From contig CAYPIF010000107.1 in NCBI GenBank assembly GCA_964410735.1, positions 6,656-70,655 of the forward strand: a DNA stretch of 64,000 bases. Direction: 5' to 3'. Position 1 is the stretch's first letter; every line of letters begins with the position of its first letter. The position numbers and the translations under genes were made by a program. The notes under the pieces were generated by a model. The model saw only the letters and a program-made list of their open reading frames with translations, did no database searches and was not told the origin of the DNA. This document shows positions 8,672-43,961 of the stretch, one piece after another. The DNA comes from an uncultured Thermoplasmatales archaeon (GTDB lineage Archaea; Thermoplasmatota; E2; DHVEG-1).

Positions 8672-10843
8672 CTAGTTTCTCAGATGAAAACAAATATACA
8701 GCACTGGTACCTCTAGGAATGCTTTGTTACCCGACATATCAACTGCGGTGATATTCATGGTAAATCTGTTCAAGCCAAATCCATTCCATTGAATCTCATA
8801 GAGTCCCTTAAATCTGTTGAACTCAAGACGGGTATCCACCTTGTTCTCAACTATTACTGTAACTGCGATGTCCTCCATCTCATCAACATTATCAGCAACC
8901 TCCACCTGTATCGGTTTCCATGAAAATCCTCCAAGAACAACGATCTGGTTTGATGGTAATACTGGTATACCTCTCAGATGAACCCTGTCTGGTTTGGGAT
9001 TGATAAGCTGAAGTGTTGGTGGTTCAACATCATCAGAGTACCCGCCCACATGCAAGCTTGGATCTCCAAGAAGTACAAATTCCTCGATGGTGAACTCATC
9101 AGTGGGTATCTGATATCGATATCTTGTTTGAGCAGCTGCAAACATTTCTCCAAGTTGTATCCCTCGCTCATATGCATCGAAGAACTCCAATGATAGTTTT
9201 TCACATCCGAAATCCTCATCCCCAAAAGCGGTTCGAGTTGCGCCAATGGTCGCTATCGCTCCACCAGGGGGATGCTTGAGAAAACTATATGCAAAACAGG
9301 GTAGTTTTATCGAGGTGTTATAATCCATTATACGTGCGATAATATCAAAGAGCCGATATTGTTTATAATCAAGGACATCCTGAAGCGTAAAATCTAGTTT
9401 TGCAGTAAGACATGCATCAAAGAAGATAATAGGAAGTTCATATCCATTCCTCAAACCATTAACATAAGGTGTAAGGTATGTTTTAAGATGACGGCCATGT
9501 GGTTTGTACGTCCCTAGACCATGTTCGAATCCGTGACCTGAGTAATCTATGAATCCAGCTCCGTTGTTTATCGCCCTGTTTATCGTCCAAGGATGAAAGT
9601 TTCCTTCAGAGGTCCAAATGACCGCGGATGGTGAAAAATCATCCATCATGTCCATAACCAAAAGATTGTGTTTTTCTCCTTCATTACCTGGTTGGAAAAT
9701 GTTAGGGAATGTGTTACCCCCAATGAATATCATCTGATGGAACCAGTCTTGACCAAACGTGTTTTGCTCATATACGATGATCTTATCAACGATGATCGAT
9801 ACTTCTTCAACAGTACTGCAGGGCAATCTTCCTAGATAGACATCGGGGTAAAGATCAACAGTATCTTCACCGGTTTCTCCAAAGACATCATCGTTATCTG
9901 TATCCCAGCTGGAAAAACTTCCATTTCCATCATAGATATCCGCATAATACAGATCTGATAAAACAGGGTGGACCCAATTTCCAAAAATGGAGACGTTCGT
10001 GGTTCGTATCGGTACTTTGTAGATATCTCCAACAAGAAGAACATATGAGACCCCGTGTTGTTCTATCATATCTTTGATATAGTATTTGATTTTCTCAGAT
10101 TGATCTCTTCCAGGATATGTTGATGTTATCTCATCTAGGGGTTGAAATACTGTGTGGGTCCCAATACTTTTTTTATGGTATATCAATGGTGAAAGAGCAT
10201 CCTTATAACTTTCTGGCGCTATGATCACAAGATCAGTATCTGCTGTGCTCGAGCAGAGCATTGGTTCCGTCGGCGCCTCATACTCTACCGTTATATGTAC
10301 CGAGGGAACTGAGGAAATGGTTTGATTTGAGGCGTGATAGGTAACTGGGTATATATGAACGACCACATATTGAACATGTTCTTTGTTCTTGATCCCTGAA
10401 CCTAGATGATATTCATACTGTTGTAGAGGATAGCAGGCATCAGTATCAGAAACACTTTCTATTAATGAGATATTTGCTCTTTGCTGTTCTGAAAGGGTGT
10501 TTTGTATCATAGGCTGTGCAACATATGAAGGTTTATTTTCAAGGGAGAGCCATTTGGCAGCTTGGAACTTACAATCAACAGAGATGACTTTCGTACCAAA
10601 GGGCATGGTGAAAACTTCAACATAAGAGGGAAGATGAGGTTGGTCCGGTTCCGTTGTATGATACAATGTTTCTTCTAATGAGATATTGGTTACATTCTCA
10701 GAGACCTCGATGATTGGGTCTGAGAACGTTATTTCTTTTGAAAATGATTGGGTTGTGACGTCTAAAGTGCTTGTTGCTTGTGAGAAAAAACCTGAATTGA
10801 GTAGAAGGATAAAGAAAAGACCAATGGTAGCGATTTTGTACAT
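8672..10843 (-). CDS. secreted clan-CD cysteine peptidase, gingipain (C25)-like
   Basis: 723 aa. Signal peptide 'GLFFILLLNSGFFSQA'. Candidate catalytic His in 'DYSGHGFEHG' and Cys in 'IIFFDACLT', which parallels the gingipain/clostripain His-Gly ... Ala-Cys dyad. The N-terminal region resembles a C25 propeptide/catalytic domain ('VLLVGD...IP', 'DLYYADIYDG'). The C-terminus is beta-rich. Confidence 0.6.
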   Translation of the reverse strand: MYKIATIGLFFILLLNSGFFSQATSTLDVTTQSFSKEITFSDPIIEVSENVTNISLEETLYHTTEPDQPHLPSYVEVFTMPFGTKVISVDCKFQAAKWLSLENKPSYVAQPMIQNTLSEQQRANISLIESVSDTDACYPLQQYEYHLGSGIKNKEHVQYVVVHIYPVTYHASNQTISSVPSVHITVEYEAPTEPMLCSSTADTDLVIIAPESYKDALSPLIYHKKSIGTHTVFQPLDEITSTYPGRDQSEKIKYYIKDMIEQHGVSYVLLVGDIYKVPIRTTNVSIFGNWVHPVLSDLYYADIYDGNGSFSSWDTDNDDVFGETGEDTVDLYPDVYLGRLPCSTVEEVSIIVDKIIVYEQNTFGQDWFHQMIFIGGNTFPNIFQPGNEGEKHNLLVMDMMDDFSPSAVIWTSEGNFHPWTINRAINNGAGFIDYSGHGFEHGLGTYKPHGRHLKTYLTPYVNGLRNGYELPIIFFDACLTAKLDFTLQDVLDYKQYRLFDIIARIMDYNTSIKLPCFAYSFLKHPPGGAIATIGATRTAFGDEDFGCEKLSLEFFDAYERGIQLGEMFAAAQTRYRYQIPTDEFTIEEFVLLGDPSLHVGGYSDDVEPPTLQLINPKPDRVHLRGIPVLPSNQIVVLGGFSWKPIQVEVADNVDEMEDIAVTVIVENKVDTRLEFNRFKGLYEIQWNGFGLNRFTMNITAVDMSGNKAFLEVPVLYICFHLRN

Positions 10844-11877: not shown

Positions 11878-12330
11878 TTACGTTTCATGACCATTAGTTT
11901 GATGACGTAGATGGTTCACCATTGTTCGGGTACCGTAATACTTTTTTGTTGCACCCATATCTGAAAGTAAGGAGAAGAACAATGTTTTCACCTCTGCGAG
12001 CTCAGAATCATCCATACCATTCGATGTGTTATACGGACATTCAAGGCCCTCTGCAACACCTTGTAACCGACAAACAAGTGGCCTAACCGGGTAGATACGA
12101 CAACCGTCATCTGAAAGATAGGGGCATTGCATATGATGTTTTTTGAATTCCTCATTATCCCATTGGATATAAGGCATATCATGCTGTTCTAGGTATGATC
12201 GAATACGCATTTCCTCTGGCTCAAACCATATGATAGGTCCACAGCATACATGGCAATGATGACAGTCCATCGTTGGAATACGTGAATAAATATGGTCGAG
12301 TCGATTGAAAATCTCATCTTTAGTGATCAT
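11878..12330 (-). CDS. YkgJ-family (UPF0153) Fe-S/zinc-chelating CxxCxxCC domain protein
   Basis: 150 aa. 'CHHCHVCCGP' (CxxCxxCC) plus downstream Cys 'CPYLSDDGCRIYPVRPLVCR'. Confidence 0.7.
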   Translation of the reverse strand: MITKDEIFNRLDHIYSRIPTMDCHHCHVCCGPIIWFEPEEMRIRSYLEQHDMPYIQWDNEEFKKHHMQCPYLSDDGCRIYPVRPLVCRLQGVAEGLECPYNTSNGMDDSELAEVKTLFFSLLSDMGATKKYYGTRTMVNHLRHQTNGHET

Positions 12331-12344
12331 ATGTTATCGCTCTT

Positions 12345-12355
12345 AAAAAAAAAAA
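12345..12355 (-). terminator. oligo-T tract (11 T on the minus strand) downstream of the thermosome gene
   Basis: A11 run on the plus strand, 72 nt past the thermosome stop. This is the archaeal oligo-T terminator type. Confidence 0.35.
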
Positions 12356-12426
12356 TCAATTGTCACCGTTGTCTTACCAAGCTCTCAAGTTTAACTGATT
12401 AAATGAAGAGGGAAAAAAGAATTGGA

Positions 12427-14055
12427 TCATTCGAATCCCTCATCGTCACCCCCATAACCGCCTGATGTTGCTGAATGAGATCCCTTAGCGCTGATAACAT
12501 CATCAATCCGTAGGATCATACGTGCTGCCTCTGAAGCAGATGATATCTGTTGACGGCTGACCCGTAATGGTTCGACAATGTGAAGTTTTACCATGTCATC
12601 GACGGTCCCCGTCTCGACATTTATTCCTGCGTATTTGTTCCCTTTTTTATGCGCAGTTCTCATCTCAAGTATCATGTTGATTGGATCCAAGCCCGCATTT
12701 TCAGCAAGTGTCCGCGGAATAATCTCAAGTGCATTGGCAAAGGATTCGATAGCCATCTGCTCACGTCCTCCAACGGTCATTGAATAATTCCTTAGAGCTA
12801 ACGCAAGTTCAGCAGCGGTTGCACCGCCACCTGCAGCGATCTTTTGATCCTCCACTGCTATTTTTACAACTGACAAAGCATCATGAACAGCTCGTTCTAT
12901 ATCATCAACAACATGTTCGGTACTCCCACGAAGCAAAATGGATACCGCCTTAGGGTTTTTACAATCAGTTGCAAGGATCATTTTTTCATCCCCTATGAAT
13001 CGCTCCTCGACAGTTCCTGCGTATCCAAGGTCCTTTGATGTTAGGCCATCAAGGTTCGCTACGATCTTTGCACTAGTTGCCTTTGCCAGTTTTTTCATAT
13101 CGGTTTCTTTTACACTTGCTATAGATAAGATGCCTTTTTTTACAAGAAAATGTTGAGCGATATCGTCAATGGATTTCTCACAGAAAACCACATTTGCCCC
13201 ACTTTCACCCACCTTTTCAACCATATATGTTATCATCTTTTCCTCTTCGTCAAGGAATGCCTGTAACTGTGATGGATCTTGTATCTGTATACGTGCATCG
13301 ACCTCGGTTTTCTTTATTTCAAATGCTGTATTAATTAATGCGATCTTTGCATCAACTACTTTTGATGGCATAGCATGATGAGGCTTTTGTTTATCAAGGA
13401 TTATCCCCTTGATCATCTCTGTTTTTTCGATACCCGCACCTTGTTTCTTCTCTATTTTAATATTTCCAAGGTCCACATGGATATGGTCGTTCTGTTTTTC
13501 AGATATAGCGATAACTGATGAAACGGCAATATGAGCAAGAAGGTCTTTAGCGGAACGGGCACTTTTACTCGCCATTGACGTCCTTGCAATATGCTCCAAT
13601 GTCTTTGTATCATCGAATTTCAAGGGGATAGCAATTGAGTCTAGTGCTTCTATCGCCTTTTTCGCTGCAAGTTTATAGCCTGCATTTATGACCGTTGGAT
13701 GGATATGTTGATCTAAAAGATTTTGCGATTGTTTTAGGAGTTCACCAGCAAGAATGACTGCAGTGGTGGTTCCATCGCCGCATTCCTCATCCTGGGTCTT
13801 AGCGACTTCAACAATCATCCGTGCTGATGGATGTTCTATTTCGATCTCTTTTAAGATAGTGGCACCATCATTTGTGATGATAACGTCACCGCTTGAGTCA
13901 ACAAGCATTTTATCCATACCTTTTGGTCCAAGTGTTGATTTTATGGTGTCTGCTATTGCTACAGCTGCAGCGATATTGTTTGACTGTGCGTTTTTTCCTT
14001 TTTCTCTTGTTGTTCCTTCTTTTAGGATGATTATGGGTTGATTACCAAGCATCAT
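12427..14055 (-). CDS. ths: thermosome subunit (group II chaperonin)
   Basis: The region contains canonical '[10 protein letters not shown]', '[11 protein letters not shown]', '[15 protein letters not shown]' and a C-terminal GGY/GGDD tail. The ORF track extends to 14157, but GGAGGTGA lies 9 nt upstream of the ATG ATG at 14055/14052, so the shorter start is preferred. Confidence 0.95.
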
Positions 14056-15123: not shown

Positions 15124-15564
15124 ATGGGTGAAAACAAAAGTATACTTTCATTAATGATAGAGGAACATAAGAAAATTGAATCACTTGTTGACACACTTGA
15201 TGAACGTGTCGATGGCGAATATGATAAGATGAAAGAAGCATTTTCTCTGATGGAATGGCAACTTGAAAAACATCTTTTTCTGGAGGAAAAAGCAATTTTT
15301 ACCATGTACGAACCGGAAGACATCAACCAAGGCTATAATATGCTTCCAACTGTAACAACCCATCATAACGAGATTCTGGACAAACTCGGTTTGATGAGAC
15401 GGTCGATTCAGAATGGACAAACCCCTCAAGACCTCTACAAATTCAAGAAATTCCTTATCGTACATCGAACATTTGAAGAAAAGGACCTCTATCCAAAATT
15501 AGAAGATGTTCTCACTGATGCCCAAAAAGAAATAATAATCGAAAGGATTAATGAAATAATATAG
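15124..15564 (+). CDS. hemerythrin-like (HHE cation-binding) domain protein
   Basis: 146 aa. Four-helix-bundle pattern with His/Glu ligands ('EEHKKIE', 'HHNEILDKL', 'HRTFEEKDLYP'). Confidence 0.7.
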   Translation: MGENKSILSLMIEEHKKIESLVDTLDERVDGEYDKMKEAFSLMEWQLEKHLFLEEKAIFTMYEPEDINQGYNMLPTVTTHHNEILDKLGLMRRSIQNGQTPQDLYKFKKFLIVHRTFEEKDLYPKLEDVLTDAQKEIIIERINEII

Positions 15565-15579
15565 GATGGTTTATACCAT

Positions 15580-15771
15580 ATGAGTGAAAAAAAAGGATAT
15601 CAATGTAACACCTGTAAGAAAACAAAGATCGTGGATGATGATACGATTCCAACCTGCTGTGGCCAACAGATGAAACAAGTGCCACTAGATATCTGCATGC
15701 AACCATCACATGCAGAACATGCTCGGCCGATGGACGATGAAGAGCCCTGTGACGACTTTCGAGCAGGGTAA
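15580..15771 (+). CDS. desulforedoxin-like small metal-binding protein
   Basis: 63 aa. 'YQCNTCKK...TCCGQQMKQV' matches the desulforedoxin CxxC...CCG.xM signature. It is tandem with the hemerythrin gene. Confidence 0.5.
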   Translation: MSEKKGYQCNTCKKTKIVDDDTIPTCCGQQMKQVPLDICMQPSHAEHARPMDDEEPCDDFRAG

Positions 15772-15795
15772 TGCCACACAATAAACTAGGGAACA

Positions 15796-16323
15796 TTATT
15801 TTGAAAAGATCTCAAATCGATCCTTTGTCGCCCTACAGATAGGGCATCGTTCTGGAGGCTGTTCACGAGCACAGAGATACCCGCAGACCCTGCAACGCCA
15901 TACAACGATAGCATCATCGGTCTTCAAAGATAATTTTTGAGCGCTTTTTGCTTGTTTTCTTTTCAATCGAACTTCTTTTGAGGGGCGACGTTCAGGGATT
16001 GGTTCAACCTGTTTTTTTCCATTTACAATATCTTCTGAGACATACAGACCACAGTAACAGGAACCATATTCATCAATATCCTTGTCACGATAATCACAGG
16101 GACAGATGATATCCAGATCGTCTTGTTTCATACCCATCGAAAGACGACAGGGACATGCTTGATACCCATAGCGGTGTTGATTAACTATAAGGCTTCGTAC
16201 AAGGTCCTTGGTGAACTCTACATCAGGGTTCAAATGATACCCCGCTGCCTCCGTCTCTTTTTTAAGCCGATCATAGAATTTAGTAATATCCGATTCAGGG
16301 ATATCAATTGTTTTTTCATTCAT
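15796..16323 (-). CDS. ferredoxin:thioredoxin-reductase catalytic-subunit-like protein fused to a C-terminal rubredoxin domain (FDR-type)
   Basis: 175 aa. FTR-like 'CPCRL...CPCDY...CYCGLY' cysteine set. C-terminal rubredoxin 'WRCRVCGY...CPICRA'. Confidence 0.7.
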   Translation of the reverse strand: MNEKTIDIPESDITKFYDRLKKETEAAGYHLNPDVEFTKDLVRSLIVNQHRYGYQACPCRLSMGMKQDDLDIICPCDYRDKDIDEYGSCYCGLYVSEDIVNGKKQVEPIPERRPSKEVRLKRKQAKSAQKLSLKTDDAIVVWRCRVCGYLCAREQPPERCPICRATKDRFEIFSK

Positions 16324-16601
16324 GCAAACAACTCCCGGATCTTATCTTCCTTAAAACCAATGATGGACTCCTTTTCATTGATGACTATGGTTGGAAATGA
16401 TCCATAGGGATTCCATTTCTCGATCTCATCCATCACCGCATCTCTCGCATTACCCTCTAAAAGATCTACATATATATATTCATATGAAACTCCAAGTTTT
16501 TCAAGGAGTTTTCGTGTTTTTTTACACCAGACACAAGTGCTCAATGCATACAGTCGTATCTGACCTTTCTCCGTTCCTGTAACATACGTATATTCAATCA
16601 T
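16320..16601 (-). CDS. glutaredoxin-like (NrdH/YruB-type) thiol-disulfide oxidoreductase
   Basis: 93 aa. 'CVWC' active site in a thioredoxin fold. It overlaps the FTR-like gene by 4 nt. Confidence 0.75.
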   Translation of the reverse strand: MIEYTYVTGTEKGQIRLYALSTCVWCKKTRKLLEKLGVSYEYIYVDLLEGNARDAVMDEIEKWNPYGSFPTIVINEKESIIGFKEDKIRELFA

Positions 16602-17167
16602 TCTCTATCCACCTTAGTAAATCTATTATTATGCACGAACGCTGAAAATGGTTTTCTCAATGGCCTTTGAATTTCCTGTTCCTTTTGGTTATCAGATAAT
16701 ACCGGTTTTATCCTATCCGCATGTTTTCCCACAATGATCAATGCAATCACCTGCAAATCATCAGGAATAGAAAGTATCTGTCTTGTTTTCTTTGGACTGT
16801 ATCCTGCGATAGGATGAGCGACAAGGCCTAACTCTGTTGCTTGAAGGATCAAAAAACCAGTTGCGATACCCGTGTCAAAAAGATAGTATTCACGATCATA
16901 GATCACACAATCATCAGGTTTTTTTGCACAGACCGCTATATACATCGATGCATCATATGCCCATTCATTTCCCTTTGATAATGCAGCATGCATCTCATCA
17001 AGCTTTTCTTTCGAATGGACAAAGACATAATGCCATGGTTGATTATTGAAACAGGATGGTGCAAGTTGCGCAGCAGCCGCAAGTTGTTCGATGAGTTCTT
17101 TATCTATTTTAACAGAGTCTAATGAGCGGTACGCCCGTCTTTTTTCAATGATCTCTGTTACACTCAT
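16598..17167 (-). CDS. nitroreductase-family flavoprotein
   Basis: 189 aa. 'SCFNNQPWHYVFV' and 'DTGIATGFLILQATELG'. Confidence 0.8.
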   Translation of the reverse strand: MSVTEIIEKRRAYRSLDSVKIDKELIEQLAAAAQLAPSCFNNQPWHYVFVHSKEKLDEMHAALSKGNEWAYDASMYIAVCAKKPDDCVIYDREYYLFDTGIATGFLILQATELGLVAHPIAGYSPKKTRQILSIPDDLQVIALIIVGKHADRIKPVLSDNQKEQEIQRPLRKPFSAFVHNNRFTKVDRE

Positions 17168-17193
17168 TCGTTTTCACAACTAAGATATCTCTC

Positions 17194-18132
17194 TCATCGT
17201 AACAAACCCTGGATAATGATATCAGTTGCCTTCTCTTCATCAAGTCCACGGGCCATAAGGGTCTGTAATTGTTTAGTGTCCACACTGCCCAGGGATGCCT
17301 CATGGGTGATATGTGCCTTAGAATGATTCACTTTCACAATTGGGATCGCACTTACAATTCCATTATCCTGAACTATCTCCTTACAATCAACATGGCCTCG
17401 TGCATACGGTGCGGAGGCTGTAAGTTCACTATATACCTCAGCATTTGCAGAGTCTCGTACTGCAACTCTTGAAAGTAATACTCCATGAGCATGTTCGCCT
17501 TTCAGATGTCCTTTCTCTTTGATACGGACTTCATCAGTATGGGTCGCATTGACACGTGCATTCATTTCAAGGACACTATATGATTCAGCGATTGTCTCAT
17601 AATCAATGTCTATCTTTCCAACACGGCCTTTTAGGAGTTCAAAATCTGTCTTGTACCGCGCATGATCAAGAAGATGGATCTTTGATTTTGGTACAACAGT
17701 GATACCACCTGTGTTGCCATGAACATGTCGTTCTATATAAGAATATGATGCATGTTTACCTATGGTAATGGATGCATCCATAAGATGTTGGATATCAACC
17801 GCGTTAGGGAATGTACAATGTGCAAGGACCTGCATCGATGCATTATCCTCAATTTGTATATCCATGTTAATTCGTTGTATGCCTTGTTTATGCATTACTC
17901 CAAAACACATATGGACCGGCTGAGCAACAACTGTTCCTTTTTGTAATATAACCTTTAAAGATACTCCATCTTCAAGTTCTTCAGGTTCTATGATCAAACC
18001 TGGGACTGCATGGAGTCCGACAACCTTGTTATGATGTATAAAAAGATGAGCAATATCCTTTCTTTTGAAGATATCATGTTCGATACCAGATGCATCAGAT
18101 AACATTGTCTTTAATTTGTTCTCCTCGCTCAT
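17194..18132 (-). CDS. sufD: Fe-S cluster assembly protein SufB/SufD family
   Basis: 312 aa. It has a SufBD C-terminal beta-helix region and overlaps the sufC stop. Confidence 0.75.
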   Translation of the reverse strand: MSEENKLKTMLSDASGIEHDIFKRKDIAHLFIHHNKVVGLHAVPGLIIEPEELEDGVSLKVILQKGTVVAQPVHMCFGVMHKQGIQRINMDIQIEDNASMQVLAHCTFPNAVDIQHLMDASITIGKHASYSYIERHVHGNTGGITVVPKSKIHLLDHARYKTDFELLKGRVGKIDIDYETIAESYSVLEMNARVNATHTDEVRIKEKGHLKGEHAHGVLLSRVAVRDSANAEVYSELTASAPYARGHVDCKEIVQDNGIVSAIPIVKVNHSKAHITHEASLGSVDTKQLQTLMARGLDEEKATDIIIQGLLR

Positions 18133-18875
18133 GCAACTGCCCCCTTATCTGGCATATTCTTATGATTGCAAGGAATACAGTTGTTTTCAAAATAGGGGAT
18201 GATCTTCTTTGCCTCTGCTTTCTCTATGATCTGACCACCACACATTAAAAAAGCGTGATCTGCCTGTCTTAAGACCGCTAAGCTATGGGTAATAAGAAGT
18301 ATCGTTGTACCTTTTTTCTTTAGTTTTTTGATGACCTCGGCCATTTTATCAAGTGTTCCAACATCGATACCTGAATCTGGTTCATCAAGCATGATAAACG
18401 GTGGGTCCATCGCAAGTATCGAAGCAAGTTCAACCTTTTTTCGTTCACCACCACTTAATGTTTGATCTACGGATCTGTTAAGATATTCCTCCGGGTTCAG
18501 CCCCATCTGGATTAATGAATCGTTTATGATACCTTCAGCATCTTTCTTTCTTGAAGCTGGTATCCCTGCCGCAATGAAATCATGGATACTGATACCTTCA
18601 TATCGTGCTGGTTCTTGCCATCCAAAAGTGATGCCTTTTCGCGCTCGTTCATCAATCGAGAGGTCATTGATCTTTTCACCATTGAAGAAGATATCACCGG
18701 TCACATCACGGTATCCTTCGAGACCCATGATCGATGATGCAAGGGTTGATTTCCCTGCTCCATTCGTGCCAACTAATGCATGGATATGTCCGTTCCATAT
18801 GTCCAAGTTCACCTTCTTTAATATGTGATTTCCATTGATTTTTAAACTGAGGTCTTTTATCTCAACGATTCCCAT
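18129..18875 (-). CDS. sufC: Fe-S cluster assembly ATPase SufC
   Basis: Walker A 'GTNGAGKST', signature 'LSGGERKKVELAS', Walker B 'IMLDEPDSG'. The ORF track start (19031) adds an implausible 52-aa extension; 'MGIVEIKDLSL' is the expected SufC N-terminus. Confidence 0.85.
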   Translation of the reverse strand: MGIVEIKDLSLKINGNHILKKVNLDIWNGHIHALVGTNGAGKSTLASSIMGLEGYRDVTGDIFFNGEKINDLSIDERARKGITFGWQEPARYEGISIHDFIAAGIPASRKKDAEGIINDSLIQMGLNPEEYLNRSVDQTLSGGERKKVELASILAMDPPFIMLDEPDSGIDVGTLDKMAEVIKKLKKKGTTILLITHSLAVLRQADHAFLMCGGQIIEKAEAKKIIPYFENNCIPCNHKNMPDKGAVA

Positions 18876-18936
18876 GGTCTGTACCTTCATTTGATATATG
18901 CTATTTTTGAAACTGAAAAAAATGAAAGATGTGGTT

Positions 18937-19320
18937 TTAGGTTTTGTTTTTCCATAATCCATGCACGTTACAGTATTCCCGTGCTTCCACATCATCTGCG
19001 TGTAGTTCGAACAATGCCTCTGGTTTATCACCCGGTTTCAGGAATTTTCTCATACTTGTTCCATCTGCCAGGACCTGTATCCATTCGATGTAATGTTTTT
19101 CTTCCATTGGATGGGACTGATTCTGACCGACCTTCACAAGGATACCTTGCTCAGTTTTTTCAATATATGGTACATGTTTCTCTGTTGAGGCGTCCTGGGT
19201 TTTTTCGTCTTGTTTCTCCATTGGTTTGCCGCAGCATACAAGTTGTCCAGCACCAGCATGTAATACTTCCACAATATTTCCACAAATCATACATTTATAT
19301 ATTTCTCGGACCTTCGTCAT
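18937..19320 (-). CDS. dfx: desulfoferrodoxin (2Fe superoxide reductase) with N-terminal desulforedoxin domain
   Basis: 127 aa. '[12 protein letters not shown]...LVCCGKPM' is the Dx domain. The SOR domain has His ligands and C-terminal 'CNVHGLW'. Confidence 0.85.
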
Positions 19321-19341
19321 TTGTTACATTCCTCCTTATTT

Positions 19342-19917
19342 TCAATATGCTTCTACAAAGAGCTCGTAATAGCTCTGAGGATGTTGACAGGCAGGACAGA
19401 TCTTTGGTGGTTCAGGACCCTCATAGATATAGCCACAGTTCCGACATTTCCATTGGACCTTTTTCTCTCTTTTGAACACGAGACCGTTCTCCACGTTATG
19501 TAAAAGTGTTCTGTATCGTTTCTCATGAGCGGCTTCTACTTTTGCTATAGATGCAAAGCTTCGTGCGACCTCTGGGAATCCTTCTTGCTCCGCGGTTGTT
19601 GCAAAATCCGGGTAGAGTGTCCCCCATTCCATTTTTTCTCCTTCCGCAGCTGCAAGAAGGTTTTCTTTTGTCGTTCCGATCTTACCAGCTGGATAGGTTA
19701 CAGTGATCTCAACATCCCCACCTTGTAGATGTTTGAAGAAGACCTTTGCATGTTCCTTTTCGTTTTCAGCTGTTTCCTCAAATAAGGCAGCGATTTGTTC
19801 ATATCCTTCTTTTCGTGCTTGTGACGCAAAGTAGGTATATCTATTTCGTGCTTGGGATTCTCCTGCGAATGCTTTTAAGAGGTTTTGTTCTGTTTTTGTT
19901 CCTTTTAATGTTGCCAT
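19342..19917 (-). CDS. rbr: rubrerythrin
   Basis: 191 aa. Diiron ferritin-like domain with two E..H motifs. C-terminal rubredoxin 'WKCRNCGY...CPACQHP'. Confidence 0.9.
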
Positions 19918-19943
19918 GTTCCTTTCACCTTAATCTGCATTTT

Positions 19944-20438
19944 TTATGGTCCTGCATGGACCATTTCCCAGTAGACATCTGCCTGTTCGAACCGTTCAAT
20001 GCTCTCTTTTTCGGTTTGTAATATGCGGTAATGACCCATTTCCATATCAGCGAAATATCGTAACATCTGTGAGGTCTTGGTATCTGTGAATCTCTTTGAG
20101 AGCAGCTCATAGAAATCATGCGCTGCTTGTTCGGCCTCCATGGCTTGTGAGAGAATGGTGCTTAATGGGATATCCTCATCTGATGGTATCTGTATCTCAG
20201 GGAGCGGTACAGGCGATGTTTTTGGTATTGTTATCTCTTCCTTTGGAAAGGTTTTTTTAAAGAGTTTTTCGAGGTATTGTTTGTGTTTTGTTTCCTCGGA
20301 AGCAAGAAAATGGAATTTATCTTTCATAAGACCATTTTCCACTTTTTTCTCAAGTGTTGTATAGACCTTGTAACTTTCCATTTCGCTTTTAAGAGCAGTG
20401 AGTATAAGGTCTTTGATGTCATATTCTTCATAGTTCAT
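19944..20438 (-). CDS. ferritin-like/rubrerythrin-family diiron protein (no rubredoxin domain)
   Basis: 164 aa. Two helical halves with 'ASEETKH' and 'ADMEMGH' E...H-type motifs. Confidence 0.55.
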   Translation of the reverse strand: MNYEEYDIKDLILTALKSEMESYKVYTTLEKKVENGLMKDKFHFLASEETKHKQYLEKLFKKTFPKEEITIPKTSPVPLPEIQIPSDEDIPLSTILSQAMEAEQAAHDFYELLSKRFTDTKTSQMLRYFADMEMGHYRILQTEKESIERFEQADVYWEMVHAGP

Positions 20439-20448
20439 GGGTATTCAC

Positions 20449-20853
20449 CTAATCCAATAATCGTTGTTGACCTGTGAGTTTTTGGAGATCTGTTATATCC
20501 TGTGATGCCTCAAGACATCCTAGATATCCTCCGTTTTTATCACGTAAAGCATAGTATTCGATCATCACCTTATGAGGCGGAGTATTCTCATCAAATGTAA
20601 GGTCTATCCAGAATCGTGCTTTCTCTCTTTTTCCTGCTTTCATCTCTTCTAGGATCTGTTCAACCTTTCCGAGGCTCTTTTTGGGATGGCAGTTTCGAAC
20701 GTTCCTGCCAACAACGGCCTCAGGACGTTTGAATATCCTTGTGGCATGTTTGTTCCATGCCACAACGTTATCATCTTTGTCAACGATTGAAATCTCCACA
20801 GGTATTGTTTCTAACACCACGTCGATAAAATCTTCAGGTAGTTCTCCTATCAT
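20449..20853 (-). CDS. PAS-domain protein (putative sensor)
   Basis: 134 aa. PAS-fold pattern 'ISIVDKDDNVVAWNKHATRIF' with a conserved Cys/His 'RNCHP'. Family assignment is uncertain. Confidence 0.5.
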   Translation of the reverse strand: MIGELPEDFIDVVLETIPVEISIVDKDDNVVAWNKHATRIFKRPEAVVGRNVRNCHPKKSLGKVEQILEEMKAGKREKARFWIDLTFDENTPPHKVMIEYYALRDKNGGYLGCLEASQDITDLQKLTGQQRLLD

Positions 20854-20880
20854 TTTTCGTTCCTCTTGGTTCAGATTCCT

Positions 20881-21393
20881 CTATTCCTTTGCGATCTCCG
20901 AAACAAATGTCCTCTGCCCAAGTTCTTTATCGATCATGAAGAGTCCGTTTCCTTTTTCTCCAACGAGTTTAAGTTTGGCAATGATCTCATTGTCATTTGC
21001 CTCCTCTTCGATTTGTTCTGTGACGAACCATTGGAGAAATATCTGCGTCGCATGATCTTTTTCTTTGATAGCAAGGTCCATGAGGTCGTTGATGGATTTG
21101 GTTATGAATTGTTCATGTTCCAGTGTTTTCTCAAACATGTCCATCGGGTTTTCGAACGTAGATGGGGGTTCATCGATCTTTTTAAGATGGATCTTACTTC
21201 CTTGATCATTGAGGTAGTTGTAGATACGCATTGCGTGTTCCATCTCTTCATTGTATTGCACCATGAACCAGTTGGCAAACCCATCCAGACCAATGTTGGT
21301 TGTGTGACCTGACATTGAGAGATAAAGATACGCGGAATACATTTCTTTGTTCATTTGCTCGTTCAGTGCTTTTTCCATTGTTTTGCTTATCAT
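20881..21393 (-). CDS. ferritin (non-heme, FtnA-like)
   Basis: 170 aa. Ferroxidase-centre residues 'EMYSAYLY', 'EEMEHA', 'EHEQF', 'QWFVTEQIEEE'. Confidence 0.85.
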   Translation of the reverse strand: MISKTMEKALNEQMNKEMYSAYLYLSMSGHTTNIGLDGFANWFMVQYNEEMEHAMRIYNYLNDQGSKIHLKKIDEPPSTFENPMDMFEKTLEHEQFITKSINDLMDLAIKEKDHATQIFLQWFVTEQIEEEANDNEIIAKLKLVGEKGNGLFMIDKELGQRTFVSEIAKE

Positions 21394-21413
21394 TTTTCGT
21401 CACCACATTTAAT

Positions 21414-22055
21414 TTAGATCTTTTTATGACAGAACCACCAATCATAACAGTTGTATTCCTTTGTTCGTTTCTCAGCTGTTTTCACATCAGATGCAGGCGG
21501 GACGATGACCTCATCCTTGATCAGTTCATTATTTGGCCAGTTCGCGGGTATTGCAACACCATTACTATCTGCAACTTGGAATCCTTTGATCATGCGGAGG
21601 AATTCATCCATGTTCCGGCCTAATTCTTGAGGATAATACAAGATTGCTCTAATGGTCCCTTTTGGATCCACCATGAATATTGCCCTGACCGTATTTGTTC
21701 CCTTACCAGGGTGGATCAATCCAAGAGTGTTGGCGACTTTTCCGGTATCCGCTATGATAGGGAATTCTATTTTAACATCAAGTTTTTCTTTGATCCATTC
21801 TTCCCATTTGATATGAGCAAATACCTGATCAACGCTCAGTCCAATTAACTCGGTGTTCAATTCCTTGAACTGCTTCCAGCGTTTCTGAAAAGCAACGAAT
21901 TCAGTGGTACAGACCGGTGTGAAATCAGCAGGGTGGCTAAATAATATGAACCATTTACCTTTGTAATCACCGGGTAGTTTTTTCATTCCGTGAGTTGTTT
22001 GTACCTGCATTTCGGGGAATGCATCCCCAATTAATGGCATTTTCATTTCATCCAT
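21414..22055 (-). CDS. peroxiredoxin (AhpC/TSA, 1-Cys/Prx6-type archaeal)
   Basis: 213 aa. Peroxidatic 'FTPVCTTE'. C-terminal 'CYDWWFCHK'. Confidence 0.9.
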
Positions 22056-22126
22056 ATTCCTTTCACCTTCTTTTCAATCATTTTCTCTTTTTATTTTAAT
22101 ATCTTTTAATTCTCGTTCTTTTTCTG

Positions 22127-22288
22127 TTTTTATTTTATTCGTTTCATAGGAACACCACAGCAGTAGGGAATACTGTTGGGTGCTGAGTCAAATTCTATGA
22201 TGGAGTCACAGTTGCAATCCTCGTCCTTACAATTGCATTTGTATTGCACCGGTTTACCTGCCCCTTCACATCCACAACTATTACACAT
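22127..22288 (-). CDS. 52-aa Cys-rich metal-binding protein (9 Cys; C-terminal desulforedoxin-like CCG.PM), not in the ORF track
   Basis: Translation: MCNSCGCEGAGKPVQYKCNCKDEDCNCDSIIEFDSAPNSIPYCCGVPMKRIK. ATG at 22288 with GGGAGGTG 8 nt upstream; TAA at 22127-22129. It sits between fprA and the peroxiredoxin gene. Confidence 0.55.
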
Positions 22289-22324
22289 TTTTTAAACACC
22301 TCCCGGTTTATTACCACTTATAGT

Positions 22325-23509
22325 TCATTTTTTTATATATTTTACTATTTTTGAACCGATATCTCTCATTTTATCTAAATCATTTTCGCCGGGTATATAA
22401 TTGACATTCATACTTTTGATGGGGCGATCCCACCCAAGTCCATCAATGATCTTTTCAATCTCTCCTACCGCCTGACCACCCCACCCATAGGAACCAAAAA
22501 CAAATCCAACTCGGTTAGATGGTCGAAGTCCTTTCAGATAGGTCAGAAAACCACCCATTGTTGGAAGCATCCCATTGTTGAGTGTAGGTGAACCTAGTAG
22601 AACCAATCGTGACTCAAGGATATCAGTTATGATATCTGACATGTGATTTTTTTGAAGATGCCTCATACGCACATCCATTCCTTTGTCCCTGAGGCCGTCA
22701 AGCAATGCATATGCTAATTTTTCAGTTGACCCCCACATAGTGTCATAGATGATTACCGCTTTTTCTTCAGTTGTATCAGTTGACCATTTCTTGTAATATT
22801 CGATCATTTGTTTGTAGTGTTTCCGCCATATGATACCATGACTTGGAGCGATCATATCAAAGTCTAAGGAACCGATTGTTTCGAGGGCTTTTTGGACTTG
22901 CCCCCCATACGGTAAAACGATATTGGCATAGTATTTTGCAGCCTCATCCCTGAGTATATCAAAGGGAAGCTGATCATCAAAGCGTTCTGAAGTTGCTATA
23001 TGCTGACCAAACGCATCATTGGGTATGAGCAGCTTATCAAACGCACTGTATGTGACCATGGAATCAGGCCAATGGACCATCGGTATGTGGACGAACTGTA
23101 GTGTTCTTTTTCCAATAGATAGTGATTCGCCAGAAGTAACAACTTGGGTTTTCCAGTTGTGGTTGTAATGACGTAATAATCCTTTCTCTCCCCGTGTTGA
23201 GGTGATCAGTGTTGCATCAGGGATCATTGGCAGTATCTTTGGAAGGCTTCCTGAATGATCCATTTCCACATGGTTCGAGATGACATAGGCGATATCTTTT
23301 GGGTCTACAACTGATTTGATCCGTTCAAGCATCTCTTCAAAAAGATAATGTTTTACCGTGTCTATCAAAGTAACCTTCTCATCGATTATAAGATATGCAT
23401 TATATGTTGAGCCTTTCGGCGTCTTATATCCATGGAAATCACGGAGATCCCAATCGATGCCTCCAACCCAATAGACATTGGGTTTAATCTTGATTGCTTT
23501 CATCTCCAT
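22325..23509 (-). CDS. fprA: flavodiiron protein (rubredoxin:oxygen/NO oxidoreductase, FprA)
   Basis: Metallo-beta-lactamase-like diiron domain 'HVEMDHSG', plus a C-terminal flavodoxin domain. The ORF track start at 23512 is a GTG; ATG at 23509 overlaps the rubredoxin stop (TGATG). Confidence 0.9.
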   Translation of the reverse strand: MEMKAIKIKPNVYWVGGIDWDLRDFHGYKTPKGSTYNAYLIIDEKVTLIDTVKHYLFEEMLERIKSVVDPKDIAYVISNHVEMDHSGSLPKILPMIPDATLITSTRGEKGLLRHYNHNWKTQVVTSGESLSIGKRTLQFVHIPMVHWPDSMVTYSAFDKLLIPNDAFGQHIATSERFDDQLPFDILRDEAAKYYANIVLPYGGQVQKALETIGSLDFDMIAPSHGIIWRKHYKQMIEYYKKWSTDTTEEKAVIIYDTMWGSTEKLAYALLDGLRDKGMDVRMRHLQKNHMSDIITDILESRLVLLGSPTLNNGMLPTMGGFLTYLKGLRPSNRVGFVFGSYGWGGQAVGEIEKIIDGLGWDRPIKSMNVNYIPGENDLDKMRDIGSKIVKYIKK

Positions 23510-23667
23510 CACTGTACTTCAAATGCTTCTTTTCCTGCACCACAGACAGGACATACCCAATCATCTGGTAGTTCCTCAAAGGATGTTCCCGGGGCTATAC
23601 CCCCATCTGGATCTCCATTTGCAGGGTCATAGATATACCCACAGACGGTACATACATATTTTTCCAT
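23509..23667 (-). CDS. rub: rubredoxin, not in the ORF track
   Basis: Translation: [52 protein letters not shown] (52 aa). It has both CxxCG knuckles; GGAGG lies 6-7 nt upstream of the ATG. Confidence 0.85.
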
Positions 23668-24212
23668 ATTTTTTCCTCCAAATCCGTTTTTAACTGTTTT
23701 TTACTTTCTTTACCCACATAGGTCGGTGCTGTCTTAGGAGAATATCCACCTTTGACAGTATGATAGTACGCATAGGTCATTGGTTCTGCATCGTTCAGAA
23801 CCTCTGCGTTGATGATGTCACCAACAAAAATCGTATGTGTGCCAACATCTATTGATTGATTGACCTTAACTTCCATGAAAGCAATGGCGTGATCCGTGAC
23901 AATAGGCATGTTTGTTCTTTCAAAAATGCAACTTACCCCATTCATCTTGTCAATGTCACGACCGCATTTGAACCCAAATGTGCCAATAAAGGTCATCGGT
24001 GTATCCTTATCAAGGATAGAAAGTGTAAAAGATCTGCTCTTTTGGATAAGTTCATGGGTGAGGTTCTGTCTATTGATGCTGATTGCAAGTGTTGGTGGCT
24101 CCGAGGTAACTTGGAATGCCGCGTTAGCTATCTGACCATTCTCTTTTCCATCAAACTTAGAACATACAACGTAAAGGCCATAGGTGATCTTTTGTAATGC
24201 TTTTTTATCCAT
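23595..24212 (-). CDS. flavin reductase-like (FMN-binding split-barrel) protein
   Basis: 205 aa. 'ITYGLYVV...[11 protein letters not shown]' flavin-reductase domain. Its last ~24 codons overlap the rubredoxin gene in another frame. Confidence 0.75.
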
Positions 24213-24639
24213 TTTTATGCTCCCTTTTTTTTAGGCAGTTCTTGCAAATGCCTCTGAAATATCCGTGGACCTCATCGATCTGATGGCCATGTTTCTTGAT
24301 GTCCTTTTTGATGGTTTCAATATTTGGGCAGTGGAAATGAACATCGTATATCTGTCCACATTCCTTACAGATGAAATGGTGATGCATCTCCTGATGAAAA
24401 TCATATCTATGTTCTGTGGGACATATGGTCAATCGTTGGATGATACCGGAGTTTGTAAGTATTTCAAGGGTGTTATAGACCGTTGTTTTTGAAAGGGAAG
24501 GATATTTTGAGACCAAGGCCTGGTATATCTCGTCAGCAGTGGGGTGCGTGAGATGTGATTCCAGATAACGGAGTATCACAAGTCGTTGCTGTGTGACCTT
24601 CAGATCATGACCCCGGAGAAGCTCAACATAGGTTTTCAC
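24205..24639 (-). CDS. Fur-family metalloregulator (PerR-like, inferred from context)
   Basis: DNA-binding 'LKVTQQRLVILRYL' and a metal site 'HHHFICKECG...CKNC'. The ORF track start (24762) adds a hydrophobic extension of about 41 aa. GTG at 24639 with GGGGT about 8 nt upstream gives a typical ~144-aa Fur protein. Confidence 0.75.
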   Translation of the reverse strand: MKTYVELLRGHDLKVTQQRLVILRYLESHLTHPTADEIYQALVSKYPSLSKTTVYNTLEILTNSGIIQRLTICPTEHRYDFHQEMHHHFICKECGQIYDVHFHCPNIETIKKDIKKHGHQIDEVHGYFRGICKNCLKKREHKNG

Positions 24640-24755
24640 ATGAATTACCCCAATAGATGAAATGATTATTAATTTGAAATAATTACAATTTAAAACCAAA
24701 TACATTCTTTGGTATTTAAGCTTAATGGAAAAGATATAAAAAAGAGGGAAAAAAG

Positions 24756-24968
24756 TTAGCAAGAACTATGTTCAATTGCATCGTTAGGACAGGCACTGAC
24801 ACATGCACAGCATTCAATGCATTCTGCAACATTATTTGCTACAGCCTTCCCATCAACAAGTTCAAAAACATCCACGGGACAAACAGTAACACATTCGCCG
24901 GTACCAGTACATTTCTCATAATCGATAATGATTTTAATATCTCCCTCTTCAAACTCTTTTTTTACCAT
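24756..24968 (-). CDS. small Fe-S ferredoxin
   Basis: 70 aa. Two Cys clusters, 'CTGTGECVTVCP' and 'CIECCACVSACP'. GGAGG SD upstream of the ATG. Confidence 0.7.
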   Translation of the reverse strand: MVKKEFEEGDIKIIIDYEKCTGTGECVTVCPVDVFELVDGKAVANNVAECIECCACVSACPNDAIEHSSC

Positions 24969-25383
24969 ATAATCATAGCCTCCGTTTTTTGGAAGGGTGA
25001 AATAAATCAGGTCTTAAATTAGTTTCTATCACTCTATTTACATTCGATTCATCATATGCTAACCTACTTTGACAATATATTACCTTCGTTTGTATAACCG
25101 TACAACTAGGAGAACTATACGTTTCATAAACCCAAAAAGACCATTGGCACAGAAAATATTCAATTTGAAGCGAACTTGCACCACGCGCATATAATTCGCA
25201 ACATTTATGTAAAATGAACCCCATTGTAAATACAAAAATGCAATAATATCGAAAGATAAAATTCATATTTGCCGTCTTTTCAGCATTAAATGTTGTTATA
25301 TAATGTTTAAAGTTGGAATATTAGTTGTATAAAGTGTTGAGACACATAACTCATTACTTTTCAGCTCATCTTAAGGTGACCAT

Positions 25384-30031: not shown

Positions 30032-30448
30032 TTACAAATCCGCTTTTATCGGGTTTGGCCCTAACTTTCTGATATCCTCTGTCATATCATTAATAAGGTC
30101 TGCATACTTTTTCCCCTCGGATGCTGAGACATATTCAAATCGTACCCGTTCAGGTTCCAATCCGAACTCGGCTAACATCTTCTTCAAGAGTTTCATCCGC
30201 CTATTTGCCTTATAATTTCCTGATTGATAATGACAATCACCTGGATGGCAACCAGCTACAAGCACACCATCAGCCCCTTTTTTCAAAGCCTCAAGAATGT
30301 AAACAGGGTCAACCCTCCCTGAACACATGACACGGATGGTCTTGATATTCGCAGGGTATTTCATCCTACTGGTACCGGCAAGGTCCGCTCCAGCATAGGA
30401 ACACCAGTTGCATAAAAACCCAATAATATTTGGTTCGAATTCACTCAT
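30032..30448 (-). CDS. mvhD: methyl-viologen-reducing hydrogenase delta subunit (MvhD)
   Basis: 138 aa. 'FLCNWCSYAGADLAG...CSGRVDP...AGCHPGDCHY' is the MvhD/FlpD fold. Confidence 0.85.
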   Translation of the reverse strand: MSEFEPNIIGFLCNWCSYAGADLAGTSRMKYPANIKTIRVMCSGRVDPVYILEALKKGADGVLVAGCHPGDCHYQSGNYKANRRMKLLKKMLAEFGLEPERVRFEYVSASEGKKYADLINDMTEDIRKLGPNPIKADL

Positions 30449-30969: not shown

Positions 30970-30985
30970 GACTATAATATCACTC

Positions 30986-40483: not shown

Positions 40484-40484
40484 G

Positions 40485-43959: not shown

Positions 43960-43961
43960 AT

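Follow-up and report, generated by a model that had tools for sequence, protein, structure and literature searches.

Gene content and order of the cluster

The window analysed here is a stretch of 64,000 nucleotides (positions 6,656 to 70,655 of contig CAYPIF010000107.1) from an uncultured Thermoplasmatales archaeon, and all coordinates are those of the window. Its minus strand carries 17 co-directional open reading frames (ORFs) from 24968 to 15796, and two plus-strand ORFs (15124-15564 and 15580-15771) are convergent to the end of this row. We propose that the row is a chromosomal cluster for defence against oxygen and reactive oxygen species (ROS), organised around a bacterial-type PerR repressor in an anaerobic archaeon of the Thermoplasmatota, a reading to which we give a probability of roughly 0.6. 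The initial annotation had described 17 co-directional oxygen/ROS-defence genes with short or overlapping junctions, and the ORF listing of the window contains all of them in the order then given. Its family names were confirmed by Pfam and NCBIfam profile searches of the cluster proteins, save for three corrections that concern the "SufD" gene, the flavin reductase and rubredoxin genes, and a supposed desulforedoxin-like gene. NCBIfam hits were judged against the curated cut-offs, which were exceeded by the rubredoxin, the rubrerythrin, the desulfoferrodoxin and the peroxiredoxin. In order of transcription, the 17 genes are:

24756-24968, minus strand: fdx, 2x[4Fe-4S] ferredoxin of 70 amino acids (Pfam Fer4 families)
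24205-24639, minus strand: perR, PerR-like Fur-family regulator of 144 amino acids (Pfam FUR PF01475, 105.7 bits, 113 of 121 profile positions)
23595-24212, minus strand: flavin reductase, N-terminal half of a split high-molecular-weight rubredoxin (Hrb) (Pfam Flavin_Reduct)
23509-23667, minus strand: rubredoxin of 52 amino acids with its own GGAGG and ATG (NCBIfam rubredoxin, 110 bits, cut-off 90)
22325-23512, minus strand: class-A flavodiiron protein (FDP; O2/NO reductase) of 395 amino acids (Pfam ODP, residues 37-226, and Flavodoxin_1, residues 254-380)
22130-22288, minus strand: Cys-rich peptide of 52 amino acids, 10 of them Cys, with a C-terminal CCGVPM (without a family match in Pfam or NCBIfam)
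21414-22055, minus strand: prx, peroxiredoxin with a 1-Cys-Prx C-terminal domain (NCBIfam PRK13189, 359 bits, cut-off 211; Pfam AhpC-TSA and 1-cysPrx_C)
20881-21393, minus strand: non-haem ferritin (Pfam Ferritin, 155 bits)
20449-20853, minus strand: stand-alone PAS_10 protein of 134 amino acids (Pfam PAS_10)
19944-20438, minus strand: rubrerythrin-fold diiron protein of 164 amino acids without a rubredoxin domain (Pfam Rubrerythrin; PDB 2FZF, E 1e-21)
19342-19917, minus strand: rubrerythrin (peroxidase) (NCBIfam RuberyRbr, 305 bits, cut-off 200)
18937-19320, minus strand: dfx, desulfoferrodoxin (a 2Fe superoxide reductase) at the end of the predicted perR unit (TIGR00320, 195 bits, cut-off 147)
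18129-18875, minus strand: smsC, SmsC/SufC-type Fe-S assembly ATPase (TIGR01978 sufC as best model, 183 bits, below its cut-off of 213)
17194-18132, minus strand: smsB, SmsB, a SufB/D-family (SufB/D-core) scaffold of the MJ0034 type (PDB 9H7Y/9H78, MJ0034, E 1.4e-69)
16598-17167, minus strand: ntr, nitroreductase-family flavoprotein (Pfam Nitroreductase)
16320-16601, minus strand: grx, glutaredoxin-like (YruB/NrdH-like) small thiol protein (Pfam Glutaredoxin)
15796-16323, minus strand: fdr, ferredoxin:disulfide reductase (FDR), a fusion of an FTR catalytic domain and a rubredoxin-like domain (Pfam FeThRed_B and RUBY_RBDX; PDB 4TPU, E 7e-63)

According to the coordinates, overlaps of 1-8 nt join perR to the flavin reductase gene, the rubredoxin gene to the FDP gene, smsC to smsB, ntr to grx and grx to fdr. 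Most of the remaining junctions are gaps of 10-36 nt; wider gaps separate fdx from perR (116 nt), the gene of the Cys-rich peptide from prx (74 nt) and dfx from smsC (61 nt). The flavin reductase and rubredoxin ORFs overlap by 73 nt in different frames, the cause being a frameshifted fusion. The short or overlapping junctions are A-rich and carry Shine-Dalgarno (SD) motifs. This gene row is not a chance arrangement: related genomes show its order in no fewer than eight other loci, at 51-89% amino acid identity. One JGI metagenome contig and one SRA assembly contain identical DNA (100% across the cluster), and the nearest relatives are metagenome-assembled genomes (MAGs) labelled Thermoplasmatota or Thermoplasmatales.

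The PerR-like regulator

The product of the second gene, initially annotated as a Fur/PerR-like regulator, is PerR-like and not Zur- or Fur-like on the protein evidence. Its start was re-set to the GTG at 24639, which is preceded by GGGG, in place of the TTG of the long ORF. The protein has the N-terminal winged helix and the dimerisation domain of the Fur-family fold, and it aligns over its full length with its top PDB match, B. subtilis PerR (2FE3; E 1.9e-28, 102.6 bits; the runner-up scores 73.6 bits). The two best NCBIfam models are both PerR models, with Fur (74 bits), Irr and Zur (34 bits) ranking lower; every one of these scores falls short of its equivalog cut-off. All five regulatory metal ligands (H37, D85, H91, H93 and D104; numbering of B. 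subtilis PerR, whose nine ligand residues are listed in PMC11724291) are present. The equivalents of the structural Zn(Cys)4 residues C96, C99, C136 and C139, which form two CxxC motifs, are kept in all 121 sequences of an alignment with 120 homologues, in which eight of the nine ligand positions are invariant and the D85 position is occupied by Glu in four sequences. The regulator of the window has Asp at both the D85 and the D104 position. Asp at position 104 sets PerR apart from Fur, and the position of Asp85 is a Cys in Zur proteins.

A palindromic element in the predicted perR promoter

The initial annotation had suggested a search for Fur/PerR boxes ahead of the row, at 24969-25100, and in its internal junctions. 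No box was found upstream of fdx (24969-25383, at up to three mismatches), but a palindrome lies between fdx and perR (24674-24688), where the following features can be recognised:

24711-24720, minus strand: cTTAAATAcc, predicted as the archaeal TATA box of perR (a TTTAWATA-like element in nine loci)
24658-24705, minus strand: predicted PerR operator region, consisting of a half-site, box 1 and a degenerate box 2

The 7-1-7 inverted repeat in its own promoter that is expected of a perR gene is found as box 1, TTGTAATtATTTCAA, at 24674-24688 in the 116-nt spacer between fdx and perR. An upstream half-site, aTGTATT, is situated at 24696-24705 (minus strand) and the degenerate box 2, TTAATAATCATTTCA, at 24658-24672. 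Box 1 is the sole match with at most one mismatch to TTGTAATNATTACAA in the 64-kb window, and sites at up to three mismatches are not more frequent than expected by chance (11 observed, 8.2 expected).

Comparison of nine loci places the consensus palindrome TTGTAAT-N-ATTACAA between the TATA box and the perR start in each, 40-49 bp upstream of the start codon and about 31 bp downstream of the TTTAWATA element, with a TTGTAWT half-site between that element and the box. The palindrome is perfect in L004/L068, L010, L011, L069, L070 and L072 and has one mismatch in L003 and L071; L070 and L071 contain a second full box 17 bp downstream of the first. The spacer sequence around the box has diverged among the nine loci, and the palindrome is a strong phylogenetic footprint. 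The succession of a TATA box, about 25 bp to the expected start, and then the box would correspond to the geometry of archaeal repressors that block polymerase recruitment.

Outside the perR promoter no conserved box was found across the 14-20 kb of each locus. At up to two mismatches, no box precedes prx, smsC, the hemerythrin gene or fdx in any locus, the only exception at this threshold being a non-conserved box-like site within the perR coding region (24453-24467). A half-site-like TGTAAT, a half-site only, follows the TATA element of the hemerythrin gene. The PerR box of B. subtilis is TTATAAT-N-ATTATAA, the Zur box of Gram-positive bacteria TCGTAAT-N-ATTACGA and the box of the D. vulgaris perR-rbr-rdl operon CAGTAAT-t-GTTACTG (PMC545781). 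The consensus palindrome differs by one base per half-site from each of the first two and also resembles the third.

Conservation and exchange of modules in related genomes

Related loci were collected by a scan of a genome collection with the PAS protein, followed by tblastn with all cluster proteins; the more distant ones (L068-L072) were found through PerR homologues of 56-64% identity. The gene order is kept at 51-89% identity in L003, L004, L010 and L011, and with swapped modules in L068-L072. The complete order of 17 + 2 genes occurs in L003 (60-89% identity). L010 and L011 have the same order without the Cys-rich peptide and with an insertion of 2.66 kb that separates dfx from smsC; L004 agrees with these two, differences included, from perR to smsB, after which its contig ends. 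The ferredoxin gene is upstream of perR in the window and in L003, L010, L011, L070 and L071, and is absent in L004/L068, L069 and L072. The insertion encodes a two-subunit 2-oxoacid:ferredoxin oxidoreductase (OFOR; L010 11948-14553, also L004, L011 and L068), the SD motif of which directly follows the oligo-T tract after dfx, and which is a plausible local source of reduced ferredoxin for the FDR branch.

The variation extends to the Fe-S genes. The row of L069 ends after smsCB, without ntr-grx-fdr. L070, L071 and L072 have a fused Hrb, HSP20 and extra rubrerythrin-like genes, and inside the stretch from perR to dfx they carry a TusA-DsrE-cysteine desulfurase-NifU (IscU-like) module (L070 15309-17501, L071 16151-18316, L072 15816-18004). 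This MIS-like module stands in place of the downstream SmsCB. In L071 the row extends to no fewer than 20 co-directional genes, the last of them being trx-ntr-grx-fdr. A module for Fe-S biogenesis, be it of the first or of the second type, is a recurrent component of the related loci, and this supports the functional coupling that the initial annotation had suggested. The comparison of synteny that it had recommended reveals a dense cluster that is conserved but modular in related Thermoplasmatota.

Predicted transcription units

Intergenic runs of at least five T on the transcribed strand occur only after fdx (24738-24755) and after dfx, the latter being the sole such run between perR and fdr:

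18913-18924, minus strand: oligo-T tract (T7), a predicted and possibly leaky archaeal terminator

Because intergenic oligo-T tracts occur only at these two places, we predict three units: fdx (one gene), perR to dfx (11 genes) and smsC-smsB-ntr-grx-fdr (five genes), with possible read-through. A conserved ATAGAAAC and an AT-rich element at 25012-25029 lie upstream of fdx, and with the oligo-T tract behind the gene they point to a separate monocistronic unit. A tract of T5-T8 also follows dfx in L010, L011, L068, L069, L070, L071 and L072, and in L003 the corresponding sequence is T-rich with longest runs of 4 nt. Between perR and dfx, L068-L072 have no T-run except one T5 beside an SD motif in L071, and this pattern holds whatever the internal gene content. 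In L068, L010 and L011 the tract after dfx runs directly into the SD motif of the next gene (33-nt gap), and therefore read-through must occur there; instead of a stop, the dfx tract may act as an attenuator. The single 17-gene regulon proposed at the outset is unproven, as there is one operator, fdx has a promoter-like element and an oligo-T tract of its own and a T tract follows dfx, and the row probably comprises three units.

Scavenging enzymes and small proteins of the predicted perR unit

The flavin reductase and the rubredoxin, one of the three corrections, are the two parts of a split Hrb. In six relatives (L003, L010, L011, L070, L071 and L072) Hrb is one ORF of 230-234 amino acids, whereas in the window it consists of two ORFs, adjacent to the FDP gene. 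The A-run between the GGAGG and the ATG of the rubredoxin gene (23655-23679) is 1 nt shorter in the window than in the relatives, and the last ~24 codons of the flavin reductase ORF are an out-of-frame tail. This frameshift is identical in two independent assemblies; elsewhere, the junction is interrupted by a stop codon (L004/L068) or by a different frameshift (L069). The SD motif and the ATG of the rubredoxin are retained in every version, and therefore the rubredoxin is producible from a fused or a split gene. The A-rich linker looks like a hotspot of fusion and fission. Programmed -1 frameshifting at the junction was considered as well and is unlikely: there is no canonical in-frame X XXY YYZ heptamer, the rubredoxin has an SD motif and an ATG, and in the relatives the two parts are simply fused, or else are split by a stop codon or a frameshift.

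The FDP, which scores 395 bits with a PRK11921-like NCBIfam model (under the cut-off), combines the metallo-β-lactamase-like diiron domain and the flavodoxin domain of class A in a protein of about 400 amino acids. Directly after its gene comes the Cys-rich peptide, a protein of 51-52 amino acids with the pattern MCxxCGC…YxCxC…CxC…YCCGVPMK, which has counterparts in L003 (8557-8715) and L070 (12381-12536); in L072 a family-less 52-aa ORF (12321-12479) was matched by position and length. Two 28-nt A/T-rich direct repeats, 39 nt apart (22071-22137), span the last part of the Cys-rich gene and the gap of 74 nt that separates it from prx. The gap also holds an TTAAAATA element, which is some 40 nt ahead of the ATG of prx and could be an internal promoter; in relatives it lacks clear conservation.

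The PAS_10 protein is unusually conserved. It has 2314 homologues at E ≤ 1e-5 and a conserved CHP motif, and is 60-75% identical in MAGs of Anaerolineae, Spirochaetota, Atribacterota, Caldiserica, Asgard and Methanomassiliicoccales. Its PDB relatives, 3CAX (C-terminal domain) and 2QKP, are both uncharacterised proteins. The PAS_10 gene also occurs in 59 further loci of bacteria and other archaea, there without the cluster, and its neighbours in them offered only weak, lineage-limited associations as a clue to function, each in at most six loci: HSP20, TusA, a 139-aa, presumably DsrE-like protein and grx-fdr.

The Fe-S assembly and thiol-reducing genes

The SUF-like minimal Fe-S system of archaea is known as SMS (SmsCB) (PMC12192291, PMC12442378). 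Its hallmarks, a SufC-like ATPase gene adjacent to that of a short MJ0034-type scaffold and no SufD, SufS or SufE, are found in the window, where the two genes overlap by 4 nt; the start of the ATPase was re-set to about 18875. With 58.8 bits, the scaffold stays below the 650 of the NCBIfam SmsB "exception" model. The initial annotation had named these genes a SufCD repair module. An Fe-S module is indeed present, but the "SufD" is SmsB, the scaffold of SMS, as judged by its match to MJ0034, and the pair makes up a complete minimal SMS assembly system, not an accessory repair pair.

The last gene encodes an FTR catalytic domain followed by a rubredoxin-like domain at the C-terminus, the architecture of FDR. 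The protein, closely homologous to the M. acetivorans FDR, aligns with 4TPU over 164 residues, and the CPC…CPC…CYC and CxxC…CxxC motifs are kept. The glutaredoxin-like protein is the probable substrate of FDR, a link that rests on gene adjacency: the two genes overlap by 4 nt in the window, and grx-fdr pairs occur in the bacterial loci L037, L042 and L045. The order ntr-grx-fdr recurs in L003, L010, L011 and L071. With the fdx product as the likely electron donor to FDR, the chain from ferredoxin through an FTR-like reductase to glutaredoxin, which the initial annotation had outlined, is plausible, the more so as grx-fdr pairs are found even in bacteria.

Proposed mechanism and alternative explanations

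The predicted PerR-like control is well supported by the sequence evidence. Gene identities, synteny, the PerR ligands, the operator with its position and the pattern of oligo-T tracts are observed; DNA binding, sensing of peroxide, the limits of the transcripts and the routes of electrons are deduced. In the mechanism that we infer, a PerR whose His3Asp2 site is occupied by Fe(II) or Mn(II), and which also has a structural Cys4 zinc site, would bind TTGTAAT-N-ATTACAA just downstream of the perR TATA box, over the expected start, and so block transcription from perR to dfx. Peroxide would oxidise the metal site, PerR would be released, and the unit that carries perR, the split Hrb, FDP, the Cys-rich peptide, peroxiredoxin, ferritin, PAS_10, the rubrerythrin-like protein, rubrerythrin and desulfoferrodoxin would be derepressed. 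Electrons from NAD(P)H could then pass through the flavin reductase and rubredoxin to FDP (O2 to H2O), rubrerythrin (H2O2 to H2O) and superoxide reductase. Ferritin would sequester iron, SmsCB would rebuild Fe-S clusters, and the thiol chain from ferredoxin through FDR to the glutaredoxin-like protein could recycle peroxiredoxin. The five downstream genes may form a second unit or may be reached by read-through of the oligo-T tract, and the upstream ferredoxin gene would be a separate small unit.

Several points weigh against this organisation around PerR. The oligo-T tract behind dfx speaks against a single transcript of 16 genes. The operator is single, and internal promoters, for example in the AT-rich 74-nt gap before prx, would escape its control. 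The regulator scores under the NCBIfam PerR equivalog cut-offs (111.4 bits against 180 for the top model, the clostridial PerR NF052545, and 79.4 against 200 for the second, NF047406). The core GTAAT-N-ATTAC of the box is common to Gram-positive Zur boxes as much as to PerR boxes, and therefore the motif shows Fur-family control, with the effector not fixed by the DNA. Finally, the PerR of S. islandicus (SisPerR) regulates metal homeostasis and not antioxidant enzymes (PMC11724291).

The single operator and the tracts after fdx and dfx would also fit a co-located neighbourhood that is not a regulon, in which genes are clustered by function but belong to several independent transcription units, PerR governs no more than itself and perhaps the adjacent Hrb and FDP genes, and SmsCB and the thiol module are constitutive housekeeping. 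The variable content after dfx (OFOR in L004/L010/L011, no ntr-grx-fdr in L069, a peptidase in L072), the AT-rich gaps of 61-74 nt that could hold internal promoters, and the role of SMS as a general archaeal Fe-S assembly system (PMC12192291) agree with such a neighbourhood. It is harder to reconcile with the perR-to-dfx stretch of the nine loci, in which nearly all junctions are 0-40 nt long or overlapping, A-rich and equipped with an SD motif and lack a T-run, with the Fe-S module inside this stretch in L070-L072, and with the absence of promoter space between the T-tract and the next gene in L068, L010 and L011. We regard this explanation as unlikely but by no means negligible.

A Fur- or Zur-like metal sensor, which would repress ferritin, Fe-S and iron-protein genes according to the supply of iron or zinc, is improbable. 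The Zur core of the box (PMC545781), the sub-threshold PerR scores and an operon rich in iron proteins, ferritin and Fe-S assembly genes could be taken as signs of it. Against it stand the PerR-type ligand set, including Asp at the D104 position as well as at the D85 position, and the ranking of the searches, with two PerR models at the top of NCBIfam and B. subtilis PerR as the top PDB match. Fur and Zur, moreover, normally repress uptake genes and not ferritin or antioxidant genes. In L072, the contig that bears the perR cluster has a second, shorter Fur-family gene of 124 codons, divergent from a gene for a Zip-family metal transporter (6438-7681). Its product is probably the Zur/Fur of the organism, and therefore metal regulation appears to be handled there by a protein other than the PerR-like regulator.

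The initial annotation had also raised the possibility of a laterally mobile island, for which base composition, codon usage and gene content were all negative. The GC content is 0.405 in the cluster and 0.416 in the rest of the window (GC at third codon positions 0.378 and 0.377), and the codon-usage distance of 0.349 is mid-range among contiguous sliding control blocks (0.22-0.51). Scans found no tRNA gene in the window and no repeats bounding the cluster, and no integrase, transposase or other mobility gene was seen. The genes that adjoin the cluster in relatives, namely an AMP-dependent ligase, an FMN reductase, an amidohydrolase and a CBS protein or, alternatively, Hdr/Mvh, enoyl-CoA hydratases and biotin carboxylase, are all present elsewhere in the window. 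Since these housekeeping neighbours are shared but rearranged, the composition equals that of the flanks and mobility genes are missing, local rearrangement within the lineage, not transfer of a block, is indicated. That the cluster is a recently acquired defence island that moved as a block is hardly credible: single components are very similar across distant phyla (the PAS_10 protein in bacteria, for instance) and the flanking genes vary between sub-clades, but the whole block is found only in related Thermoplasmatota, and the PAS homologues of other phyla have other contexts.

Returning to the organisation around PerR, a wider form of it would have the bacterial-type PerR of a lineage of benthic anaerobic Thermoplasmatota govern one peroxide-inducible programme of ROS and O2 scavenging, Fe-S rebuilding (by SMS or a MIS-like module) and ferredoxin-driven thiol reduction. 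We hold this tentatively and consider it rather doubtful. If true, it would be the first archaeal PerR regulon controlling antioxidant enzymes and the first direct wiring of ancestral minimal Fe-S machineries to a peroxide sensor, and the PAS_10 protein and the Cys-rich peptides might prove to be redox components of a new kind.

Comparison with known systems

Well-described counterparts exist in anaerobic bacteria. C. difficile has a PerR-repressed rbr-perR-sor-CD0828 operon and the PerR of C. acetobutylicum controls O2-detoxification systems (PMC11980386), and the perR-rbr-roo genes of Geobacter and perR-rbr-rdl of D. vulgaris each have a local PerR box (PMC545781). The cluster shares with these operons a perR gene within or at the head of an operon with rubrerythrin, superoxide reductase, rubredoxin and FDP, as well as a palindromic operator in its own promoter, which suggests the same repressor logic, read here from sequence. 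It differs from them in its far larger size (the predicted unit has 11 genes and the cluster 17, and L071 reaches 20 or more) and in its archaeal setting, with a TATA-type promoter, an operator over the expected start and the box variant TTGTAAT-N-ATTACAA. It also goes beyond them in including ferritin, peroxiredoxin, PAS_10, Fe-S assembly and a ferredoxin-dependent thiol-reducing module. We propose that it represents an archaeal variant, enlarged in size, of the rbr/sor/FDP operons under PerR autoregulation.

As in the rubrerythrin-FprA-Hrb cluster of Moorella thermoacetica, the Hrb genes of the window are directly upstream of a class-A FDP gene. The Moorella high-molecular-weight rubredoxin reportedly serves as the reductase of the FDP FprA (Silaghi-Dumitrescu et al. 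2003, listed in PMC9364112). We take the Moorella order to be a gene for a flavin-reductase and rubredoxin protein directly upstream of the class-A FDP gene, together with rubrerythrin and superoxide reductase; to our knowledge, no PerR has been reported inside that cluster. Unlike the Moorella Hrb, that of the window is divided into two ORFs by the 1-nt difference in the A-run.

SisPerR is a peroxide-responsive Fur-family repressor and the only characterised archaeal PerR; E79, N87 and D98 replace D85, H93 and D104 in it, it has only two Cys, and PerR homologues are rare outside Crenarchaeota and some methanogens (PMC11724291). The regulator of the window is likewise archaeal and of the Fur family, but unlike SisPerR it keeps all nine bacterial ligands and heads antioxidant genes. 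The FDR shares the two-domain architecture and the CPC/CPC/CYC motifs with the M. acetivorans FDR (4TPU), for which we know of no established physiological substrate. It differs from the latter in being translationally coupled with genes for a glutaredoxin-like protein and a nitroreductase in an oxidative-stress cluster. The adjacent, overlapping genes of a SufC-like ATPase and a SufB/D-family scaffold of about 312 amino acids correspond to M. jannaschii MJ0034/MJ0035 and to the T. kodakarensis SMS. Unlike these, the smsCB pair of the window is situated immediately downstream of a ROS-defence operon, and TusA-DsrE-desulfurase-NifU replaces SMS in sister lineages.

Papers on Thermoplasmatota MAGs give dfx, prx and trx genes as inventories only (PMC12220078), and no prior description of the cluster was found in the literature on Thermoplasmatota/MBG-D. 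Every part belongs to a known family, and the logic has precedents in clostridia and in sulfate and metal reducers; the advance is in extent and host, not in principle. Archaeal oxidative-stress regulation is poorly understood, and the cluster is a concrete candidate for a bacterial-style archaeal PerR regulon, with a defined operator and a predicted 11-gene unit. It is of moderate interest as a testable model of archaeal peroxide sensing and of oxygen tolerance in sediment Thermoplasmatota, and suggests how these abundant uncultured archaea may survive exposure to oxygen. The natural variants (fused or split Hrb, SMS or MIS-like module, OFOR insertion) amount to evolutionary experiments, and the cluster nominates partners: the glutaredoxin-like protein for FDR, and FDP, rubrerythrin and superoxide reductase for Hrb/rubredoxin.

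Neighbouring genes and further elements

Two genes on the opposite strand converge on the end of the row:

15580-15771, plus strand: 63-aa Cys-rich protein with CxxC…CCG (no family; adjoins the hemerythrin gene also in L003, L010 and L011)
15124-15564, plus strand: hemerythrin-domain protein (Pfam Hemerythrin)

The pair has a TATA-like promoter element of its own, ahead of the hemerythrin gene, where an AT-rich element is conserved with L003. The third of the corrections to the family names concerns the 63-aa ORF, which had been called desulforedoxin-like. It gave no Pfam hit even at E ≤ 10 and, in BLASTP against the N-terminus of the Dfx of the cluster, an E value of 11, and a motif-level resemblance remains. 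A desulforedoxin identity was likewise tried for the 52-aa peptide of the perR unit and is without profile or BLAST support; the two proteins share a CxxC…CCG-x-x-M motif.

Between a GNAT gene and fdx, a 29-nt block at 25190-25218 (minus strand TTCATTTTACATAAATGTTGCGAATTATA) is 100% identical in L003 (from 5744), while the intergenic DNA around it has diverged; it is absent from L010, L011, L070 and L071. The block falls within an uncalled 97-aa ORF and may serve to regulate either fdx or the divergent GNAT gene. An Rfam scan of 14-26 kb (E ≤ 0.1) detected no element.

Elsewhere in the window, gene sets at 8672-10843, 30032-33438, 39069-42452 and 42499-58554 include a C25 (gingipain-like) peptidase, an Mvh-type [NiFe] hydrogenase with FlpD and HycI, HdrCBA, ETF, and the β-oxidation genes of acyl-CoA dehydrogenases, thiolase and enoyl-CoA hydratases. 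Judged by its genes, the window would fit an anaerobic heterotroph, a sediment archaeon that degrades proteins and fatty acids and is presumably oxygen-sensitive.

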